64,000 bases of DNA from a virus. The position numbers were made by a program, and so were the translations under genes. Under the pieces are notes generated by a model, which saw only the letters and a list, made by a program, of their open reading frames with translations, searched no databases and was not told the DNA's origin. Location: positions 1-64,000 of the IMG/VR virus record IMGVR_UViG_3300042691_025267, one strand, 5' to 3'. This document shows positions 43,141 to 53,131 of this stretch, piece by piece (positions within the stretch are counted from its first letter, which is position 1; each line of letters opens with the position of its first letter).

Positions 43141-43364
43141 TTACCTTTTGGACATGCACTTGGTCCTTTTGGACTATATACTTTTTTTGACAATGGACAT
43201 CCACATGCACCACAGATATGCGTCCGTATTAACATTTTAAACTCTTTGAACTCACACGCATCGCAAACTTCTGCTCTACGTTCAGCAGTTTCTTTTTGTT
43301 CAATAGTTGGATTACTGGCACGATGCCATGCAGTGATAATTTCTCGTATATCAGGAATATTCAT
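43128..43364 (-). CDS. Cys-rich small protein (DUF6171-like)
   Basis: ERRAEVCDAC...CGACGCPLSKK....ACPKGKW. Confidence 0.7.
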   Translation of the reverse strand: MNIPDIREIITAWHRASNPTIEQKETAERRAEVCDACEFKEFKMLIRTHICGACGCPLSKKVYSPKGPSACPKGKWEV

Positions 43365-44080
43365 ATTGGAAATTCATAATTAAAATATACAAAATCGTCG
43401 TGAAACAAATATTTCACCAAGTTCTTAAATTTTTCTGAGTTAATATCTATATTAATTTTTATTTTTTCCTTGGGTGTGATATTTTCTTGTTTAATTACAG
43501 ATGTGTCATATCCCAACGTGACTTCTATCCAATCATTAAATTCGTTTATATTTTCATATCTAAATATTTTAACCTTTGGTTTGTACGCCCATTCTACTTG
43601 AGTTGTAAAAAATGAGGACACAAACCCCGGTCCGTCTGCATCAAAAATTAACTGTAAATTATTTATATATTTTGGTACACAATTTTTATAAAACGAGTCA
43701 TAACAAAAATCGTAAAAAAACTTTTCCGATTGAAATATGTCTATAAAGTTAAATCCCTTCGTCCTTGGATCAGTTTCTTCAATTTTAATTCTTTGTTTTG
43801 AATCGACATCAAACTGATATGTGGTTTTATATACGTTTCCTTGTAAATACGAATCACGTTTAAACTTCATGAAATATAGTGCTGAAATAAATCTTTTATA
43901 CGGATTTCTTATTACGGTAAACGCCGGAATATCTATGTGTTCTTTAGTATATGGATCGTGTGTATGTAAAAAGTTTTCACCGATCTCTGGGAAAAATAAC
44001 TTCGTATATGCAATGGTTCCTGTTTTTGGTATTTTTATATAAAAAAACTTATTATTATTAATTCTTGAAGTAACTATCAT
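43361..44080 (-). CDS. sulfotransferase family 2 protein
   Basis: 5'-PSB IKIPKTGT, 3'-PB FTVIRNPYKRFISA, FRYENI, terminal DDF..FNY. Confidence 0.8.
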   Translation of the reverse strand: MIVTSRINNNKFFYIKIPKTGTIAYTKLFFPEIGENFLHTHDPYTKEHIDIPAFTVIRNPYKRFISALYFMKFKRDSYLQGNVYKTTYQFDVDSKQRIKIEETDPRTKGFNFIDIFQSEKFFYDFCYDSFYKNCVPKYINNLQLIFDADGPGFVSSFFTTQVEWAYKPKVKIFRYENINEFNDWIEVTLGYDTSVIKQENITPKEKIKINIDINSEKFKNLVKYLFHDDFVYFNYEFPI

Positions 44081-44081
44081 A

Positions 44082-45608
44082 TTAAGCTTGTGTAAAACAT
44101 TCACCATTAGAACATCCGCAACTGTACCCTTTGGGGGGGATAGCACCACAGGTCTGAAAGCAAAACCCTTCGCATGCAGCAGGTATTACCACTATTGTAC
44201 CATTTTCTTCTTTATATTGATACACTTCTTCCGTTGTAGATTCTTCTGGATCATTTATATATGTACCTATCAACAACGGGTATACTTCTAACTGTGTATC
44301 ATTTTGATCTACTACTTTGATAAATATTCTCGTATTTTTAACATAATTAACATCCGTTGGACTAAACCTAATAGTATTAGTAGTTGTGTCAATCGTAACC
44401 CACTCAGGATAATATCTACGTATGTTACCGAAAACAACATCATCTATGTCTATTCCATAGGCATATTGATCATTTAATTCTAATATTAATTCATACTCTG
44501 TACCAATCTGTACATTTATTTTTTCTTTCGGGATATTTTTTATAAACTTATCAAATGATGAGATGTATAGTATACTATTTGGTGTTGTGCCATAGATACT
44601 TTCATTTCTAAACAAAATATCAGTAATTCCACTATTAATTACTATGAATTGTATGTGGTATGCAGTAAGATTATTCGTTGAATTTAAATCTTTTATATAT
44701 TGTGCAACTACCCCCGACGTTAATGCAGCAGCAAGTGAAGTACCAGAAGATTCTTTTATAGTACCGTCTATGTTTAGAACATTAACTCCAATTCCTGGCG
44801 CAAAAATATCTACATCGGGCCCCCAGTTTGAACCAGCTCCACCCCCCCAACTAATAACTCTATCATATGGATCGGATGCACCTACACCTATCACCGTATC
44901 TAACCCCACGGGCGATAGATTATTTGCGTCTGACATGGTGTTACCTGCTGCGGCCACTACTACAAAATTACTATCTTGCAATTCTTTAATTTTTGTATCA
45001 AGAATTTTACTTCGTGGAATAGTCCATGAGCAATTTACTACAGCAACTTCGGTTATATCGGTTCGGTCTTGCAAAATTGCGTCAAATGCAAGTAACAAAT
45101 CACTTATGTTAATCACTGCTGCCATTTCAATTCTTACGTTTTTTAATTCTACGTTAGTTGCTACACCAAGTGTGCTACCAACTATTAGACTTGCCATAGC
45201 AGTACCGTGACCCAACTCGTCAGAAAAATCACCATTGAAACTATAACAGTTAACAATATTTGCGTCAACTAATTCTGGTAACGTTGCGTTTATTCCACTA
45301 TCAATCAAATAAACTTTTACTCCATCCCCATGATTTAATGGAAAATACTTTTCTTTCATTGGAAGTGCATTAGAAATAATTCTTAATTGGTGCCACTCCG
45401 AATTAGATGGATGTACTTCCGTACTCAAGTCTTCTTCTATATCTAATACACCAGATATGTTCGTAAATACGTCTTCTGATTCGCACGATACATTGACTAC
45501 CTGCATGGAAGTAAATATACGATTTACTACTATACCTTGATTGGTCATACTGCTAAGTAAATTTTCTATATTAATATCTTTTTCAAAAACTACATTATAG
45601 TTTTTCAT
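44082..45608 (-). CDS. S8 subtilase with prodomain, Ig-like domain and six-Cys C-terminal peptide
   Basis: LIDSGI, HGTAMAS, AAAGN, SGTSLAA; PEWVTID..T.TI Ig-like stretch; tail CEGFCFQTCGAIPPKGYSCGCSNGEC. Confidence 0.88.
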   Translation of the reverse strand: MKNYNVVFEKDINIENLLSSMTNQGIVVNRIFTSMQVVNVSCESEDVFTNISGVLDIEEDLSTEVHPSNSEWHQLRIISNALPMKEKYFPLNHGDGVKVYLIDSGINATLPELVDANIVNCYSFNGDFSDELGHGTAMASLIVGSTLGVATNVELKNVRIEMAAVINISDLLLAFDAILQDRTDITEVAVVNCSWTIPRSKILDTKIKELQDSNFVVVAAAGNTMSDANNLSPVGLDTVIGVGASDPYDRVISWGGGAGSNWGPDVDIFAPGIGVNVLNIDGTIKESSGTSLAAALTSGVVAQYIKDLNSTNNLTAYHIQFIVINSGITDILFRNESIYGTTPNSILYISSFDKFIKNIPKEKINVQIGTEYELILELNDQYAYGIDIDDVVFGNIRRYYPEWVTIDTTTNTIRFSPTDVNYVKNTRIFIKVVDQNDTQLEVYPLLIGTYINDPEESTTEEVYQYKEENGTIVVIPAACEGFCFQTCGAIPPKGYSCGCSNGECFTQA

Positions 45609-45637: not shown

Positions 45638-46225
45638 TCATATAAGTACGTCATTTATATTTAATAAATTTGCAGCCCACTGACGTTCCATGCAGAAGTA
45701 ACACCCACCACACTTCTCCACACCATCTTTATTTTTTATACCACATGACCTAGTTAATTTCAACAAATCCAACACATTCTCTGTAACATACAATTGCATT
45801 ATTTCTTTTTTATCCATATCAATAAACGGTCTGATATGTTTATCATTGTAAGGAGGGCCCCTAAACGGTGGTGTATCGTTTTTTATGTATATAGTGGGGG
45901 TAAATTCATCCGTTAGTACTTTATTACATCCACTATATACATACCCGCCTTCCGTCAATAATATGTTTTCCACCAACTCCCGTATATTGTAGTTTTTATA
46001 TAATTTTTTATTACTAAAGTTAATTCCTTTCATAGTAAACCATTCCTGTACTCTCTTTACATTATTCACCGCATCTGCGGTTGGCATCGTATACGAGAGA
46101 ATCGGGATGGTCCTATTTTCTTCATAGAGTTGCTTTTGTAATAAAAATAATAAAATAGAACTATCCATTCCGCCAGAAAATAATACGTTAATTTTTTCGC
46201 AGTCGGATGGTATTTTTATTGTCAT
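45638..46225 (-). CDS. QueC-like PP-loop ATPase
   Basis: FSGGMDSS, RPF..MDK, TRSC..CGGCYFCMER. Confidence 0.8.
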   Translation of the reverse strand: MTIKIPSDCEKINVLFSGGMDSSILLFLLQKQLYEENRTIPILSYTMPTADAVNNVKRVQEWFTMKGINFSNKKLYKNYNIRELVENILLTEGGYVYSGCNKVLTDEFTPTIYIKNDTPPFRGPPYNDKHIRPFIDMDKKEIMQLYVTENVLDLLKLTRSCGIKNKDGVEKCGGCYFCMERQWAANLLNINDVLI

Positions 46226-46238
46226 ATATAAGTATCAA

Positions 46239-47012
46239 TTATATTCCCATTTGCTTACGAATGTCGGTTGCGCTGATCGCTTCTGTGGACGCGTCCAGAT
46301 TGATTTTCTCCACCTTATAGCCCACATCTCTACCGTAATACACGCCGGTAATGTTTGGTAGGAATATCACTTCAAATTTTCCTTGATATTTGTCATTTAA
46401 TTTTTTATAAATGAAATCAGATACTTCTTCATAATCAAACGGATTCTTTTCATCAATGTTGTGGGTATTGCGGACCCCAATAAGTACCTGTCCTTCTTTT
46501 TCCAGGATGGTTTCAAACAATTTCAAATGACCATCGTGGAATGGCTGGAATCGTCCAATCATCAATCCTGTGGGTGCTTGCCAATCAAATTCTGGAACCG
46601 GCTCCATCTTTTTAGTAAGGCGTGCGATAATCTCGTCAGTTTGTTCACCGACATCACCCCATGCAGTAATTTCCACATCTACTACTTCTGGTCGTTGGAA
46701 TACCTTATTGGTGTCCTCAAACCGACCTTCGTTGATTGTATTCATAAACACGATATAGTCGGGAGCAAACGCATCTCTGGTTTCTTCTAATGGACACACG
46801 AAATCGGCAACTACGTGGTCTGAACTGGCAATATCGGCAAGATGATACATTCTATCCGCCTGTCGGAGCCGTCCTTCTTCACTGAAGTCCCAATCATTAA
46901 ACATCTTACGAACTTCGTCTGCATTAAAATATGCGGCTTTCAACTTCTCTGCCAACACTTTGGAAAGGGTCGTTTTTCCAGACCCCGGTAATCCCATAAC
47001 TAAAATTTTCAT
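46239..47012 (-). CDS. adenylylsulfate kinase-like domain fused to HxGH nucleotidyltransferase
   Basis: MGLPGSGKTT, NADEVR, DFSEEGR, ADFVCP; then IGRFQPFHDGH and ISATDIR. Confidence 0.82.
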   Translation of the reverse strand: MKILVMGLPGSGKTTLSKVLAEKLKAAYFNADEVRKMFNDWDFSEEGRLRQADRMYHLADIASSDHVVADFVCPLEETRDAFAPDYIVFMNTINEGRFEDTNKVFQRPEVVDVEITAWGDVGEQTDEIIARLTKKMEPVPEFDWQAPTGLMIGRFQPFHDGHLKLFETILEKEGQVLIGVRNTHNIDEKNPFDYEEVSDFIYKKLNDKYQGKFEVIFLPNITGVYYGRDVGYKVEKINLDASTEAISATDIRKQMGI

Positions 47013-47019
47013 ATAACCC

Positions 47020-47229
47020 TCATTCTTTAATTCCGTACGATACCCATTTGTACCATACTCGTTCGTGTAGAAAATATAACACCATTTTGGTCAGTACTTC
47101 CGCACCACCAATTGACAACCCAACTTTCCAATTACCCGATATGAGTCCTGCGAGTATTATGGTGTCTAGTGTACCAACAGCTCTCCAACTAATCGTCTTT
47201 GCTATATGTCGTTTTACATGTACTGTCAT
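47020..47229 (-). CDS. DUF2061 membrane protein
   Basis: RHIAKTISWR..GTLDT, E..TK..LYFLHERVW. Confidence 0.88.
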   Translation of the reverse strand: MTVHVKRHIAKTISWRAVGTLDTIILAGLISGNWKVGLSIGGAEVLTKMVLYFLHERVWYKWVSYGIKE

Positions 47230-47776
47230 AATATGAATAGTTAATTGCCCAAGTTCGTTCTATACAATTTAAACAACTTCCGCAATGTCCATATTTTTGT
47301 AAATAACAACTGTGCGTAAGTTCCAGTAGTTCCCAAATATTTTCGTTCCTATATAATTGGACTACTTCGTGCTTATACATATCTTTGAATGGTATCAAGA
47401 CTTGTGGATATTCAAAAAATTTTCTCTCTGGAAACTGAGGCATAAATTTATTACTTCCGATAACAAACTGATCCACCTCTCCAGTTCTTAGATACAATTT
47501 AATCCACCTAGTAAACGTTCTATTACTTGTTGAATCTTTATCGTTAATTTCTTCTGGTGGTATTATACTTGTGTTTAGTTTTGTGTTTATCCAACTTAAA
47601 ATATTACGAATTCTATCCATACAAATCGTTGATTGAATCATTGTATAACACCGTATGTTTACATTCAATTTAGCTAATAGGTATAATAGCAACGAACTCT
47701 CTAGGCCACCTGACAAATATAGTCCAATATTATTTGTTGTTGGGCTTATACTAATTAAATTGGACACAGATGTCAT
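47189..47776 (-). CDS. QueC-like PP-loop ATPase
   Basis: LSGGLESS, PF..MYK, THSC..HCGSCLNCIER. Confidence 0.78.
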   Translation of the reverse strand: MTSVSNLISISPTTNNIGLYLSGGLESSLLLYLLAKLNVNIRCYTMIQSTICMDRIRNILSWINTKLNTSIIPPEEINDKDSTSNRTFTRWIKLYLRTGEVDQFVIGSNKFMPQFPERKFFEYPQVLIPFKDMYKHEVVQLYRNENIWELLELTHSCYLQKYGHCGSCLNCIERTWAINYSYYDSTCKTTYSKDD

Positions 47777-48411
47777 AAGTATGTAATACTTGGTTCCAAT
47801 AATTCATAGTCGTCTTTATATAGATTCATACACATCTCTTGTATTTTTTGCATGTCTCTAAATTTAGCAGGAGTAATATTAAAGTTATCAATTGCAGAAG
47901 GTCTAGCTTTTACAGTGTCGCCAAATGTTAAATAAATCCATTTTGTATACTGGTCCATTGATACAATTTTATACTCTTTTATGTCTTGGACGGATTCGTT
48001 ATAAGCAACCTCTATATTAACGGGTGGGATGTTATAAAAATAATCCATCTGGGATCTAGTGTGCATATCCAGTCTATAGTTTTTTAAAATCAATTCCTTT
48101 GCATTTAAAAAATCAGATAGTAAATCATGTCCACGACTTTTAGGAATAAATAATGGTATGTGTTCAACTTTAACAGTTTTATATAAAAATGGTTCGTATA
48201 TAAATTGATTGTAAAACGACAATAATCTTATGCATGGATCTCTATATAGGAAAGTTTTGTGTTCTGCTTCTGTAATTACATTTTTAAATATGGGAACGTG
48301 AGTCACATCTGTCAAATTGTACTTAAATACATTATTTACTAGATGTGATGATCCATTTCTTGAAGGAGTTACGATGAGATGCCTTTTTTTTAAATCATAA
48401 AACACTCGCAC
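47773..48411 (-). CDS. sulfotransferase-like protein
   Basis: PSRNGSS, LYRDP..RLLSFY, HT.SQ, LYKDDY. Confidence 0.65.
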   Translation of the reverse strand: MRVFYDLKKRHLIVTPSRNGSSHLVNNVFKYNLTDVTHVPIFKNVITEAEHKTFLYRDPCIRLLSFYNQFIYEPFLYKTVKVEHIPLFIPKSRGHDLLSDFLNAKELILKNYRLDMHTRSQMDYFYNIPPVNIEVAYNESVQDIKEYKIVSMDQYTKWIYLTFGDTVKARPSAIDNFNITPAKFRDMQKIQEMCMNLYKDDYELLEPSITYL

Positions 48412-48434: not shown

Positions 48435-49064
48435 TCAGAGATATGTAATGTTTGGTTCTAGTAATTCGTAATCGTCTTTATACAACGTCATACATAAATC
48501 TTGTATTCTTTGCATATTACGAAAATTAGAAGGATTGATGATAATACTATCTAACGCAGACGTTGATTGCGTAGTTTTTTTATCTACAAACGTCAGTTTT
48601 AGCCATTTGGCATATTGATTGATTGAAACTATTTCATAGTCACTTATATTTTGGTCATATCGTTCATCTTTGAAATAGTCACTCTGCGGGGTTGTATGAA
48701 AATCTTCCTTATAATTTTTTATCAATTTATCGGTAGCGAGAATCATATCAGATAGTAAATCGTTTCCACGAGTTACCGGTTTAAATAATTTATTGGCTAA
48801 ATTCGTATCTTGATCTTCCTTGGCAAATGTTTTTACTGCCTGTGTATCAAATACAAATCTTTTATAATATGACATCAGTCTAACACAGGGATCTCTGTAT
48901 AAAAAGGTTTTTTTCTCGACTTCCGAAATTATACCATTAAATATAGGACTGTGAGTTACCTCGGTTAATTTGTATTCTATTGCGTGATGATGTAGATGCG
49001 AAGATCCATTGCGAAATGGCACCACTATGAGATGTCGTTGACTTATATTGTAAAATATTTTCAT
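48435..49064 (-). CDS. sulfotransferase-like protein (paralog of 47773..48411)
   Basis: PFRNGSS, LYRDP..RLMSYY, HTTPQ, LYKDDY. Confidence 0.65.
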   Translation of the reverse strand: MKIFYNISQRHLIVVPFRNGSSHLHHHAIEYKLTEVTHSPIFNGIISEVEKKTFLYRDPCVRLMSYYKRFVFDTQAVKTFAKEDQDTNLANKLFKPVTRGNDLLSDMILATDKLIKNYKEDFHTTPQSDYFKDERYDQNISDYEIVSINQYAKWLKLTFVDKKTTQSTSALDSIIINPSNFRNMQRIQDLCMTLYKDDYELLEPNITYL

Positions 49065-50561
49065 TTATAGTACCGTTACTTTATAAAAATGTTCAAACTC
49101 AAGTGCATCGTTTCGTGTATTTACAATAGGTTGCCCCTTGATATTCAAACTGGTGTTTAGTAACATAGGGCACCCCGTTTCCTCATACCACGACATTAAT
49201 AGTTGATAATATCCTGGATTATTTTCTTTAGTTACCGTTTGAACTCGTGAGGTACCATCGGCGTGAATAATTGCAGGAAACTCCTCTGGACGTTTACACT
49301 TTACTACATACTGCATATACGGACTTTCATCTGTCACCATATCAAAATAGTCAGCCGCATGTTCTTGGAGAATGGAAGGAGCAAACGGACGAAACTTCTG
49401 TCGGCGTTTGATTGCATTCACCGTATCCTTAATTTCTGGACCCCGTGGGTCTGCTAATAAACTTCTATTACCCAACGCACGGGGTCCAAATTCTGCTCGC
49501 CCATTTGCCACTCCTACTAATTTATTCGTTTTCAATTCAGAAATCAACCCCCCAACGGGATATTCTCCTTCAATATTATACCCTAGAAATGGACTAGTGA
49601 ATTGAATATGTTCGTTAGTATATGATAAGATTGCTCCTAGACTGTTTCCCGCATCGCCTGGATTAGGTATGATCCATACATTCTTAAAGTATTCCAACGT
49701 TATTGGATTAGCAACGCAATTCAGTGCGCATCCACCACCTAATACCAGATTATCAGATTTTATCAACTCTTTGGTCTTTTTTAAAAGATCACGAAAGTAT
49801 AGTTCGTATACATACTGCGTTGCAGCTGCTATATCATACAAATCCTGCGGATCGTTGGTTCGGTTCAATTCAGGAAACCACCAAGAACATCCACGATGTA
49901 AGTTGTGTTTTAATCGCAATAAATTTGATTTATAATAGAATTCATTCATATATTCTTTTTTATCAAAAAAATCTTCTATTATCATCGCAGAGTATTTGTG
50001 CGGATCACCATATGCGGCCATGCCCATGAGAATATATTCTTCTTCATTTGGTTTTAATCCCACCCGTTGCGTCATGGCAGAATACCACAATCCTAGACTA
50101 TGAGGATAACCAATACCTAATTTGTTGGTAAGTTTTGTACCTTTTCCTTCCCAAATTGTTGTCGTATCAAATTCACCAATTGCATCAATAATAAGAACTG
50201 CTGCTTCTTGAAACTGCGATGTATAGTATCCCGCCGATGCGTGACTTTTGTGATGGCCGGTAATTTTGACGGGAGCAGTGATTCCATAGGTGGACAGATA
50301 TCGTCGTATATTATTTTCTTTAATACGCAATCCTTGACCAGCATATAGTTGTCGTAGGGTTTTTACATATGGATTCTCGTACCAAACAACGGACGATGGC
50401 TTTCCATATCGTAATGCATCCTTAATTAACTCCGGATGTAGATCTTTGTCGTTTTTATTTTTTGAATACCGTTCGCTTTGTGACGCAAATACCAACGAGT
50501 TATCTTTTATTACCGATAATGCAGCGTCATGACTGTTAGCAGAGATTCCCCATATTACCAT
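49065..50561 (-). CDS. NodU/CmcH/TobZ-family O-carbamoyltransferase
   Basis: HDAA, ERYS..K, HH.SHA, DAIGE, GGCALNC, PGDAG, EFGPRALGNRS, FRPFAP, LLNTSLN. Confidence 0.95.
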   Translation of the reverse strand: MVIWGISANSHDAALSVIKDNSLVFASQSERYSKNKNDKDLHPELIKDALRYGKPSSVVWYENPYVKTLRQLYAGQGLRIKENNIRRYLSTYGITAPVKITGHHKSHASAGYYTSQFQEAAVLIIDAIGEFDTTTIWEGKGTKLTNKLGIGYPHSLGLWYSAMTQRVGLKPNEEEYILMGMAAYGDPHKYSAMIIEDFFDKKEYMNEFYYKSNLLRLKHNLHRGCSWWFPELNRTNDPQDLYDIAAATQYVYELYFRDLLKKTKELIKSDNLVLGGGCALNCVANPITLEYFKNVWIIPNPGDAGNSLGAILSYTNEHIQFTSPFLGYNIEGEYPVGGLISELKTNKLVGVANGRAEFGPRALGNRSLLADPRGPEIKDTVNAIKRRQKFRPFAPSILQEHAADYFDMVTDESPYMQYVVKCKRPEEFPAIIHADGTSRVQTVTKENNPGYYQLLMSWYEETGCPMLLNTSLNIKGQPIVNTRNDALEFEHFYKVTVL

Positions 50562-51367
50562 TGTTTAGGTACTCCTAAATGTTTATTTTCATACTTCTCA
50601 GGAGGAGTTTTGTTTATAAGATAAGAATGTTCATAGGAAATGAGATTAAACAAACGTTCAGTTATTATTGCATAACCTTTCTCGTTGGGATGTCCGCAAA
50701 ATGCAACGGTATCTAAATCTTTATTTGCACGTACTTCGTGTAAAATATCTCGATGTTCTGGATACAGAATTTTATGGGTAAAGTTTAAACTTGCTGAATT
50801 TTTCATAAGGACATCTAACCCCCGACCTTCGTCGGCATTAACATTAATATAAAAAAATTTATAGTTAGATAATGTACATATGTTTTTTATTAGATTAACA
50901 TAAAAATATGACTCCAGTACAACATCTCTGGTAGGATTATTACCCAAAAAATTGAAATAACTATCAGATAAATTCTGATATTCTGGTGTCATGTTTGTTA
51001 CGTGCGAAAGTACCGATGAGATTTTTCCGTTTCTATAAAAACTTATTCTAGTAGAAAATGTAACCATCCATATTACCAATACGTCATATTCGTCGGAAAG
51101 ATTTCTATCAGAAAACAATTCCATCCATCGTTTGACGGTTTCGGAATTTGAACACCCACCGTGACCTAAATTCCATAAGTAATGATAACCCAACTTCTTT
51201 TGCAGTTGATGTGGCCATCCCATAACATGAAATCTATCAGTACTGGCATTATACGGAGAAATTGTTTTATCTAACGGCTTTCTTCGTTCGTTCAACAAAG
51301 AAGGTTCATAACACCCAACTCCCTCCGTATAGGAACATCCTAATGTTATTAGAAGTTTCTTTTTCAT
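50555..51367 (-). CDS. SGNH hydrolase-like protein
   Basis: GCSYTEG, NLGHGGCSN, GHPNEKGY. Confidence 0.7.
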   Translation of the reverse strand: MKKKLLITLGCSYTEGVGCYEPSLLNERRKPLDKTISPYNASTDRFHVMGWPHQLQKKLGYHYLWNLGHGGCSNSETVKRWMELFSDRNLSDEYDVLVIWMVTFSTRISFYRNGKISSVLSHVTNMTPEYQNLSDSYFNFLGNNPTRDVVLESYFYVNLIKNICTLSNYKFFYINVNADEGRGLDVLMKNSASLNFTHKILYPEHRDILHEVRANKDLDTVAFCGHPNEKGYAIITERLFNLISYEHSYLINKTPPEKYENKHLGVPKQW

Positions 51368-51381
51368 ATAATTATCCGTAA

Positions 51382-52194
51382 CTATTGAGAAATTTTATTC
51401 ACCATCCATCTGGAAATGCAATCGTATCCAAGTGGATTTGGATGACTGCATCTAGAAAATCCTTTACTGGAGTGAGTGGATACTATTAATTCTTTAAAGC
51501 TGTCAAACTCAGTTGGATGTAAACATCCTTCAATTTTATACTTGTTTATAATTTCGTTGACCGGAGTAAACGCCGTACCCCAGTGAAATTTATATCCACA
51601 ACTTTTTGCAAAATATTCAACTGCTCTAATACTAAACAAAGTTTCTTGCATAGCCCCATGTGGTATCATGTGGGAAATATATAAGTCATGTATATATGCA
51701 GGAATGTAAGGTGGTTTATATAAATTTTCTCCCGTACTTCCCGTTTCTTCATTAATGGTAAATCCACGGGTTGTCACACTCCATAATATACTACTGTTCC
51801 CGTTTGTGTTCAAGTACAAACTAAAACGATGTGGATCGGTCAATAAAAAAACTAGTACAACCTCATCATAATTAGATCTAAAATTTGCATACTTATCGTT
51901 TATAAACGTTTTTGCAATGCCGGGGTTTGTAAATCCCGCAATACCTAGATTTTTTAGATCGTAATTTAATATCCTAGAGGTGATTGATGGCCAACTATAT
52001 TGTTTTTCCATTTTTTCAATTTCATCGTCGTAGTCTTTTCTTTCTTCTGATGATAAATGAATACTGAGGTTATTGGTTCGTTCTAAGTATTCTGGTGTAT
52101 AACACCCAACCCCGTGTGTCCAGCTATCTCCAAGTGTTATTAACAATTTTTTAGTCATGTTATCTCCAAGTGTTATTAACAATTTTTTAGTCAT
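51382..52194 (-). CDS. SGNH hydrolase-like protein with duplicated N-terminus
   Basis: GDSWTHG, NLGIAG.TN, SHPNPLGY. Confidence 0.7.
   Translation of the reverse strand: MTKKLLITLGDNMTKKLLITLGDSWTHGVGCYTPEYLERTNNLSIHLSSEERKDYDDEIEKMEKQYSWPSITSRILNYDLKNLGIAGFTNPGIAKTFINDKYANFRSNYDEVVLVFLLTDPHRFSLYLNTNGNSSILWSVTTRGFTINEETGSTGENLYKPPYIPAYIHDLYISHMIPHGAMQETLFSIRAVEYFAKSCGYKFHWGTAFTPVNEIINKYKIEGCLHPTEFDSFKELIVSTHSSKGFSRCSHPNPLGYDCISRWMVNKISQ
52125..52194. repeat. perfect 34-bp direct repeat x2 (period 36)
   Basis: TATCTCCAAGTGTTATTAACAATTTTTTAGTCAT at 52125 and 52161. Confidence 0.95.
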
Positions 52195-53131
52195 CAAGTA
52201 TGCCAGAATTTATAATTTTTTCACCCCAAAGTTTATGAGTATCTTCATTTGGGTGAGTAACTTTAAATAAAATATTATTATACTTACGCTGCCAATTAAA
52301 ATAATTCAAGGTTTTGTTTAATTCCTTATTAATAAAACTCATGTCATCAGGAGTGAATTGTTTGTAAACATCAAACGGATTAATATTAGTGTTAATCACC
52401 CAATCATAAAAAGTTTTGATTAACGTTTCCCAATAATAACTACTCAAATCAACGGGTGGAATTATTGGATCATTTTTTAATAAACTAAGATGTTCTACCA
52501 TTGAAATATCTATTGCATTTTTGTATGGTCTATCTATCCATCTAGTAAAATTTTTCCAGAAAATATATTTTACGTTTGAATGTTTATCTAAAACAGAATT
52601 ATACAAAGTTTCCAGTCTACGTTCATACCACGAATAAAATGCTTGTATAGAAATAGGATCTTTAATTATTTCTTGAAAAAAGCCACGATATGTAAAATCA
52701 AAAGGTATCTCATAGTTTAATAACCAATACCCCTTTATACCTAATTGAAAAAAATCACGGGATGGTTCAGTTAGTTGAATTATACATCGTACAGTATCAT
52801 ATTTACCAGCAACTTCATTCAACAATCTACGCAAAGAAAGTGCAATATTAACATTGTTACCACCGGGCAGTGCGCACAGACAAAAATCCGAATCATATTT
52901 AATTGCACTATAAATTCCCAAATTATTATTAATACGATGTTCCGTGTTATCAATTCCCAGTGCGTGTTGACCTCCCATTGAATCTCCCCAAGACCAACTT
53001 TCTCCTACTACTATAACCAAATCTTTTTTATTTCTATTCAACCAAACTTCTGTGTTTAAATTTGGAGGATTTTTATAGTGTGATTCTAGTAATAATTTTT
53101 TGGTAACAATACTTTCCTTATATATATTCAT
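52187..53131 (-). CDS. SGNH hydrolase-like protein
   Basis: VGESWSWGD, ALPGGNN, THPNEDTH. Confidence 0.65.
   Translation of the reverse strand: MNIYKESIVTKKLLLESHYKNPPNLNTEVWLNRNKKDLVIVVGESWSWGDSMGGQHALGIDNTEHRINNNLGIYSAIKYDSDFCLCALPGGNNVNIALSLRRLLNEVAGKYDTVRCIIQLTEPSRDFFQLGIKGYWLLNYEIPFDFTYRGFFQEIIKDPISIQAFYSWYERRLETLYNSVLDKHSNVKYIFWKNFTRWIDRPYKNAIDISMVEHLSLLKNDPIIPPVDLSSYYWETLIKTFYDWVINTNINPFDVYKQFTPDDMSFINKELNKTLNYFNWQRKYNNILFKVTHPNEDTHKLWGEKIINSGILDD

Follow-up and report, generated by a model that had tools for sequence, protein, structure and literature searches.

A viral fusion of a short APS-kinase-like domain with a compact nucleotidyltransferase is a candidate minimal PAPS synthase that has relatives in SAR11 bacteria

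The stretch of DNA analysed here (the window) comprises 64,000 nucleotides, positions 1 to 64,000 of the IMG/VR virus record IMGVR_UViG_3300042691_025267, which is 80,386 bp long, has an estimated completeness of ∼32% (CheckV) and for which no cultured close relative was found. The range 46239–47229 consists of two minus-strand open reading frames (ORFs), one of 257 aa (46239–47012, with the stop codon at 46239–46241) and one of 69 aa (47020–47229). The 257-aa ORF joins a domain related to kinases of adenosine 5′-phosphosulfate (APS) to a nucleotidyltransferase (NT), and sequence comparisons lead us to propose, with a probability of roughly 0.6, that the fusion is a minimal two-step sulfate-activating enzyme, i.e. 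a minimal synthase of 3′-phosphoadenosine 5′-phosphosulfate (PAPS). That the NT constitutes a new family of ATP sulfurylases, a ‘mini-Sat’ derived from nicotinamide mononucleotide adenylyltransferases (NMNATs), is given slightly better than even odds. The elements concerned are as follows:

46239..47012, minus strand: 257-aa fusion ORF, kinase then NT; candidate minimal PAPS synthase according to domain matches, alignment and model.
46599..47012, minus strand: short, lid-less APS-kinase-like P-loop domain, residues 1–138; PF01583 match, structural matches and alignment with CysC.
46242..46571, minus strand: compact NT with HxGH and ISxTxxR motifs, residues 148–257 (110 residues); PF01467; proposed non-canonical ATP sulfurylase.
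47020..47229, minus strand: DUF2061 small membrane protein of 69 aa, directly upstream of the fusion; PF09834, 2.8e-21, 76.1 bits versus a cut-off of 23.1.

An earlier reading of the sequence (the original prediction) had described the ORF as a fusion of an APS kinase and an HxGH nucleotidyltransferase adjacent to a DUF2061 gene, and both descriptions were borne out by the PF09834 match given above and by matches to PF01583 (APS_kinase, 26.5 bits, cut-off 21.1) and PF01467 (CTP_transf_like, residues 151–196, 35.3 bits, cut-off 21). The whole fusion also matched phrog_10255, annotated as ‘kinase’ in PHROGs (6e-62). Conservation was read from an alignment of 46 homologues of the fusion, in which both halves are strongly conserved. 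The sequence GLPGSGKT and the previously singled-out GRFQPFHDGH and ISATDIR were all recovered as invariant or near-invariant, and the same applies to GLPGSGK, NAD..R, DWDF...R..Q..RM and DFVCP on the kinase side and to GRFQPFHxGH, R181, NPF, PNIT, YGRxVGY and ISAT.IR. As catalytic motifs are conserved in both halves, both domains look catalytically intact. An alignment-based AlphaFold2 model of the fusion reached a predicted local distance difference test (pLDDT) score of 90.5.

In sequence and in predicted structure, the N-terminal domain is nearest to APS kinases. Residues 3–81 match P-loop kinase families including PF01583, the latter over model positions 5–91 of 152 only, and the NCBIfam apsK score is far under its cut-off (21.6 versus 138.7). 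The structure searches used the whole model, and the kinase domain dominates their results. The top five VIA-align matches were all APS kinases (Z 16.6–15.7, with 22–29% identity in the four single-domain APS kinase rows), followed by gluconate kinase (Z 15.0) and shikimate kinase (Z 13.4), and Foldseek likewise placed APS kinases nearest to this domain. Upon alignment, G7, L8, G10, S11, G12, K13, D32, R35, F43, R48 and P108 proved invariant in short and canonical kinases, and the features that the short form has retained from canonical CysC (PF01583) include, besides the fold, the P-loop, the DxxR Asp and Arg, the LGF Phe, the DR Arg and the FxxP strand. On the basis of the P. chrysogenum and human structures, the shared residues are presumed to be APS contacts.

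The best NCBIfam matches of the C-terminal part are archaeal/NadM NMNATs, all of them far under their cut-offs: the equivalogs TIGR01527 and NF002243 gave 38.5 versus 181.2 bits and 39.6 versus 127 bits, respectively, over profile positions ∼2–66 only. Among solved structures, the enzymes of M. jannaschii and of the NadM type are likewise nearest (profile E 8e-11), in a match restricted to the first two thirds. Compared with this group (M. jannaschii MJ0541, PDB 1f9a), the NT has GRFQPFHxGH, NPF, SxTxIR and the first three beta-alpha units in common, but lacks ∼25 residues between the third strand and the SxT motif (chain residues 72–107) and the C-terminal subdomain of 35 residues, and possesses instead an invariant Arg181, PNIT and YGRxVGY in a genomic context of sulfur and not of NAD. 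In archaeal NMNATs, the deleted segment presumably contains NMN-contacting residues; a search for such residues retrieved nothing of use. Such relatives, and the frequency of NMNAT genes in phages, would fit an NAD salvage enzyme following the logic of NadR, in which a nicotinamide riboside kinase and an NMN adenylyltransferase restore NAD+ for the phage. We judge this very improbable, as the score remains far below the NMNAT equivalog cut-off, the two losses relative to the M. jannaschii enzyme have to be accounted for, the kinase is closest to APS kinases and not to NadR-type kinases, and no NAD genes recur in the neighbourhoods, where sulfotransferases, aprBA and cys genes recur instead.

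The fusion is common (>7,600 clusters at 90% identity), and phages of Xylella, Xanthomonas, Stenotrophomonas and Clavibacter carry it with ∼47% identity. A representative search revealed each of the two domains as a stand-alone protein, a reversed arrangement with the NT preceding the short kinase (P0165), and the same NT fused N-terminally to a canonical CysC of full length (P0196; PF01583, 5.7e-63), a form found in at least 177 clusters and mostly ∼310 aa long. Split, overlapping kinase and NT genes are present at most Pelagibacteraceae genome loci and at viral loci. Independent fusions in both orders together with split adjacent genes are a classic sign of two steps in one pathway. A single 289-aa frame uniting short kinase and NT was also observed in one genome (G161:C2:161404–162147), so that the fused form exists within Pelagibacterales too.

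The proposed two-step logic is that of the bifunctional PAPS synthases (animal PAPSS1/2; bacterial and fungal Sat-CysC), and the order of a kinase followed by an HxxH-type NT is that of the animal enzymes; both domain orders occur in the present family, as they do among canonical PAPS synthase fusions. The model aligned with human PAPSS1 (1x6v_B) over both domains (244 residues, Z 15.8), with a root mean square deviation of 17.8 that results from differing domain orientation. In contrast to these enzymes of ∼620 aa, the phage protein has only ∼257 aa, its NT does not belong to PF01747 and is devoid of a PUA-like domain, and its kinase is without the mobile lid.

Sulfotransferase genes recur beside the kinase and NT genes in viruses. 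Among the close relatives of the fusion (16 loci, 64–74% identity), 14 loci encode a homologue of one of the sulfotransferase-like proteins of the window and most encode QueC-like proteins. A second viral lineage (64 loci) shows the gene order sulfotransferase, kinase, NT, with the latter two as split, overlapping genes; a PF13469/PF00685 sulfotransferase (1.7e-16 / 1.4e-14) lies upstream in 51 loci, with an overlap at the start of the kinase gene in 47 of them, and three families of 2-oxoglutarate (2OG)-Fe(II) oxygenases are located downstream. In a third set of 77 loci, 66 of which are kinase-NT fusions, sulfotransferases were detected within 4 kb in 41 (Sulfotransfer_3/1 in 25, Sulfotransfer_2 in 16). 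These two families are the most recurrent neighbours and often overlap the end of the fusion gene, and an Asp/Arg hydroxylase is placed directly upstream in 10 loci. Outside viruses, the fusion of Inquilinus limosus is followed by an arylsulfotransferase (ASST) gene and then by a Sulfotransfer_3 gene.

The marine loci of the second type (L019–L082, e.g. L049:7202–10870) form a conserved cassette of a sulfotransferase, the short kinase, in part the NT, three 2OG-Fe(II) oxygenases and an uncharacterised protein, a composition that hints at a hydroxylate-then-sulfate modification of some target.

At each of the 16 close viral loci and in two contigs of metagenome-assembled genomes, the DUF2061 gene adjoins the fusion. 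DUF2061 was also found in 34 of 41 sampled Flavobacteriaceae genomes, where two operon layouts were recognized, one consisting of Rrf2, DUF2061, a CysH-like protein and CysD, and the other of a CysQ-like protein, tandem DUF2061, CysC (6e-70) and CysD. Four of these loci were annotated (L166–L177 set), and the other eight fit the first layout by their ORF lengths. Its presence in canonical cys operons is a separate line of evidence that links the phage pair of DUF2061 and fusion to sulfate activation. The membrane protein is a conserved companion of the fusion and may have a role in sulfate activation or uptake; a literature search on DUF2061 function returned nothing relevant. When proteins joining DUF2061 to an APS kinase were sought, only tandem DUF2061 duplications were obtained. 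In one homologue of 395 aa (P0134), an N-terminal DUF4118 membrane domain precedes the kinase-NT fusion, and this architecture together with the DUF2061 neighbour hints at an enzyme working at the membrane.

In cells, the NT is found mainly in Pelagibacteraceae, as an overlapping gene pair with the short kinase (e.g. L153, 9582–9989 and 9989–10363), and the phage NT is ∼52% identical to the NT of Pelagibacterales aprBA operons. A scan of species-representative genomes revealed the fused form in a few other Alphaproteobacteria, and the NT was absent from all 400 genomes sampled evenly from the other Pseudomonadota, which is why we consider the cellular family to be largely confined to Pelagibacterales and scattered Alphaproteobacteria. 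SAR11, which is among the most abundant bacteria of the ocean, possesses aprBA, ‘cysC’ and cysQ but misses sat and cysDN (PMC5069961), ATP sulfurylase being missing from most of its members (PMC10356861); the group has an APS reductase and several PAPS-type sulfotransferases, and no recognised interconversion of sulfate and APS (PMC5069961, PMC10356861). Consistent with these reports, five near-complete SAR11 genomes contained no PF01747 Sat and no convincing CysD; all five encoded AprA (∼989 bits), and each had two or more full-length PF00685 sulfotransferases. The same five genomes keep CoaD, NadD and CoaE, for which reason readings of the pair as a CoA-synthase-like enzyme (phosphopantetheine adenylyltransferase plus dephospho-CoA kinase) or as a replacement of the nicotinate mononucleotide adenylyltransferase were rejected.

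Tallies were made over 151 Pelagibacterales genomes at least 85% complete, kinship among them being ignored in all statistics; they include the unpublished genome G122, which adds one count in the positive cells and on which no conclusion rests. The NT was present in 122 genomes, AprA in 122, PF00685 in 122 and Sat in 6, Sat thus being absent from 145 of the 151. NT and AprA occurred together far more often than apart (both, NT alone, AprA alone, neither: 116/6/6/23; odds ratio 74, Fisher p 2e-16), and an association was also obtained for NT and PF00685 (107/15/15/14; odds ratio 6.7). The canonical CysN/C fusion (ORF >600 aa) was encoded by none of the 122 NT-positive genomes and by 7 of the 29 NT-negative ones (p 5e-6).

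Stronger evidence than these genome correlations is provided by the gene order near aprA. Eighteen genomes have the NT gene and aprA no more than ∼2 kb apart, and six of their apr loci were inspected, which fell into two layouts. In layout A (13 of the 18; G070, G074 and G062 inspected), the kinase-NT pair is convergent with a unit encoding a membrane protein, AprB, AprA and a 116-aa protein. In layout B (the other five; G125, G163 and G173 inspected), genes for a TENA-like protein, the NT, an AprM-like protein with four transmembrane segments, AprB, AprA, the 116-aa protein and a TauE sulfite exporter follow one another on the same strand. Searches of the five layout-B genomes with a SAR11 kinase as query and with PF01583 did not retrieve the short kinase; the only APS-kinase gene in G193, one of the five, is a separate canonical-type gene on another contig, and PF00685 sulfotransferases are missing from four of the five. 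Given this operon without the short kinase, the NT can evidently partner AprBA alone. Such a partnership is the role that ATP sulfurylase has in sat-aprBA modules, and it is not expected of an NMNAT. As in the dissimilatory sat-aprBA module, the NT of some Pelagibacterales occupies the usual place of sat beside aprM-aprB-aprA, followed by tauE; unlike in that module, it is no homologue of Sat, and in most SAR11 it is located elsewhere, next to the short kinase.

The apr operon of G125 (L179:3033–8834) was seen to start with the gene of the TENA/THI-4 protein and to end with those of the 116-aa protein and the TauE/SafE exporter. The 116-aa protein, which is conserved and belongs to no known family, is encoded after aprA in both layouts.

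These observations would fit the following scheme, in which we infer both enzyme activities, the sulfurylase above all, as well as the nucleotide used and the direction of the reaction. The NT would descend from NadM-type NMNATs through loss of the segment and of the subdomain that flank the second-substrate site, and would adenylylate sulfate (ATP + sulfate <-> APS + PPi, PPi being pyrophosphate), whereupon the N-terminal lid-less APS-kinase-like domain would phosphorylate the 3′-OH of APS, yielding PAPS. With the kinase fused or translationally coupled to the NT, PAPS formation could pull the unfavourable sulfurylase step forward, and the neighbouring phage sulfotransferases would use this PAPS within a glycan-modification island. 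In most SAR11, this NT may stand in for Sat/CysDN, either by itself or paired with the short kinase; it would run with AprBA in sulfite oxidation (APS + PPi <-> ATP + sulfate) and, with the short CysC, would supply PAPS. Support for a minimal PAPS synthase, as put forward in the original prediction, comes from the APS-kinase likeness of the N-terminal domain and from genomic context, namely the CysC fusions, the sulfotransferase neighbours, DUF2061 in cys operons, the linkage to aprA and the exclusion of CysN/C; all independent context tests that were run agree in pointing to sulfate activation. The phage might also be self-sufficient for the sulfate donor, as inferred in the same prediction, although only ∼32% of its genome is represented in the record.

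A number of observations speak against this scheme, the first of them concerning the NT. Judged by its sequence, the NT is a trimmed NMNAT relative outside the Sat family. No ATP sulfurylase chain was retrieved in the PDB profile search with the NT even at E ≤ 10, PF01747 (Sat) has no match anywhere in the 80-kb record, and all ATP-site motifs of the NMNAT type are retained in the NT, which shows no Sat-specific signature. The invariant HDGH and ISATDIR do represent the HxxH fold and the SxT/R motif as in Sat, but they are common to the whole superfamily and not specific. As possible counterparts of the QxRN sulfate-binding motif and the GRDHAG loop of Sat, the NT has RFQP before HxGH and YGR[D/G/E]VGY later, and the resemblance of the latter to the ‘GRD’ of Sat extends to the GR only, G and R being its only invariant residues. 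The earlier suggestion that the NMNAT-like domain may be a non-canonical ATP sulfurylase holds as regards the likeness to NMNATs and is in agreement with the genomic context, whereas a match to the Sat family is lacking.

As to the kinase, the phage domain (∼135 aa, versus ∼175 aa for CysC) has lost the ∼27-residue RDxKGLYKKAR lid, the DGD of canonical CysC corresponds to an invariant NAD, and APS-kinase homologues can accept other nucleoside diphosphate-linked (NDP-X) donors, e.g. Cj1415 (PMC11800397). The pair might therefore make a different PAPS-like donor, with the NT forming an NMP-X anhydride with some other anion or phosphate ester and the kinase adding the 3′-phosphate. The precedent lies in Campylobacter jejuni, where Cj1416 (CTP:phosphoglutamine cytidylyltransferase) and the APS-kinase homologue Cj1415 (cytidine diphosphoramidate 3′-kinase) make CDP-phosphoramidate 3′-phosphate (PMC11800397), that is, a nucleotidyltransferase and an APS-kinase homologue likewise build a 3′-phosphorylated donor. 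Sets of genes similar to Cj1415–1418 occur in SAR11 islands, and in P0265 the short, atypical kinase is fused to a PF00483 NTP_transferase. The Campylobacter nucleotidyltransferase, however, has a PF00483-type fold, and its partners, glutamine kinase and amidohydrolase, are absent near the phage fusion. In the second and third viral sets, the commonest neighbours belong to sulfotransferase families for which no donor other than PAPS is known, and the associations with the aprBA operon and its tauE gene, with DUF2061 as a member of cys operons and, through fusion, with canonical CysC point in the same direction, so that another donor appears rather improbable.

In two SAR11 islands (L163:3406–9050 in G002 and L164:6889–12643 in G004), the gene of a fuller APS_kinase homologue lies next to those of a PPDK_N/PEP-utilizer protein, a Peptidase_C26 glutamine amidotransferase and a nucleotidyltransferase. 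By analogy, their resemblance to the Cj1415–Cj1418 O-methyl phosphoramidate pathway would suggest phosphoramidate-modified surface glycans in some strains.

As to genomic context, 36 of the 77 loci of the third viral set have no sulfotransferase nearby, and the Xylella phage Salvo and the Stenotrophomonas phage DLP_6 have none within 8 kb of the fusion. Co-occurrence with sulfotransferases, proposed earlier as a check on the prediction, was thus observed at a majority of loci in both viral sets and in Inquilinus, and failed at these others. Eighteen of the 64 loci of the second lineage contain sulfotransferase and kinase in the same arrangement but without the NT. The Pelagibacterales statistics ignore phylogeny, and the complementarity of NT and Sat that was expected among these genomes did not emerge, the NT being kept in five of the six that bear Sat. 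The 18 loci, at which the kinase can apparently work without the NT, the five Sat-bearing genomes, and the presence of the NT alongside AprBA, itself a producer of APS from sulfite, would agree with a true APS kinase that receives its APS from host CysDN/Sat or AprBA and is accompanied by an NT in some other APS-linked job. The NT could then be an adenylylsulfate:phosphate adenylyltransferase (APS + Pi -> ADP + sulfate), act in the breakdown of APS/PAPS or serve as a nucleotide-binding regulator or scaffold. HxGH enzymes use NTP and release PPi, and the invariance of HxGH, ISxTxxR and several further Arg residues, among them Arg181, Arg228 and Arg252, across the family argues for a working NTP-dependent transferase. 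The mutual exclusion of NT and CysN/C in Pelagibacterales in turn fits replacement of the sulfurylase step. We accordingly consider an NT with a different APS-linked function unlikely and prefer the minimal PAPS synthase.

To our knowledge, ATP sulfurylase activity has so far been assigned to two families, Sat and CysDN, and we know of no PAPS synthase smaller than the fusion described here. If the assignment is true, the NT would add a third, much smaller and NMNAT-derived ATP sulfurylase family, a new enzyme recruited to an old reaction, and mini-Sat plus lid-less APS kinase would be the smallest PAPS synthase. A PAPS synthase built on an adenylyltransferase that is neither Sat nor CysDN would be new, as no paper was found that calls this NT family a sulfurylase, and searches of the literature for a non-canonical ATP sulfurylase like this NT or for PAPS synthesis in SAR11 retrieved nothing relevant. 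The NT would furthermore represent the missing sat of SAR11, closing the AprBA route of sulfite oxidation and, via the short CysC, providing PAPS for SAR11 sulfotransferases; with the NT as candidate, the long-standing sulfate-APS puzzle of these bacteria would become directly testable. Marine and soil phages would spread mini-Sat widely as an auxiliary gene that drives sulfation during infection, which would explain the donor supply of sulfotransferase-carrying phages even in hosts unable to activate sulfate. The role of phage sulfotransferases was called unclear in one phage study (PMC10580990), and the present assignment points to sulfation of glycans or of hydroxylated targets as a common, unstudied phage modification.

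The surroundings of the fusion in the window contain the following further genes:

43361..44149, minus strand: probable sulfotransferase, Sulfotransfer_2-like; PF03567, 7e-4, 20.3 bits, cut-off 22.
45638..46225, minus strand: QueC-like PP-loop protein, 195 aa, context only; PF06508, 2e-9, on the C-terminal Zn motif, plus PP-loop.
47189..47776, minus strand: second QueC-like PP-loop protein, 195 aa, context only; PF06508, 2e-8.
47773..48411, minus strand: probable divergent Sulfotransfer_2-like protein, paralogue a; family matches and YRDPxxR motif.
48435..49064, minus strand: probable divergent Sulfotransfer_2-like protein, paralogue b; same evidence as for paralogue a.

Three sulfotransferases had been predicted near the fusion, and this was confirmed only in part. 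For 43361–44149, the weak PF03567 match is accompanied by a match to phrog_3347 (Gal-3-O-sulfotransferase, 3e-8, PHROGs), by a weak match to heparan sulfate 2-O-sulfotransferase and by PKTGT and RNPxxRxxS motifs of the PAPS-binding type, which are invariant in the family as KxPxTxT and RxPxxRFxS. Paralogues a and b, which are 49% identical, have no Pfam match themselves and are supported at the level of their family, two of whose five members match PF03567 Sulfotransfer_2 (1.3e-4) and which has a C-terminal block in common with the family of 43361–44149.

The two QueC-like proteins bracket the DUF2061-fusion pair in the window and only in its closest viral relatives, with no other deazaguanine genes nearby. 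They were also considered as CysD-like sulfurylases and rejected, since they gave generic PP-loop matches only (E ∼2e-3) and were missing from the other contexts in which the kinase-NT pair was seen; as a conjecture, they might amidate carboxylates within the glycan island. Next to its sulfotransferase-like genes, the window encodes a NodU/Nol-like carbamoyltransferase (49065–50561, minus strand; PF16861, 5e-57; PF02543, 1e-44), and this mixture of carbamoylation and sulfation genes recalls the decoration of Nod factors (NodU, NodH, NodPQ). Just past the carbamoyltransferase lies an array of paralogous SGNH-like genes (50555–52197, minus strand) that resemble the C-terminal, SGNH-like domain with a GDS(F/W) motif to which the short kinase is fused in two homologues of ∼430 aa (P0195 and P0220), which suggests that the array is functionally tied to the same module as the kinase.

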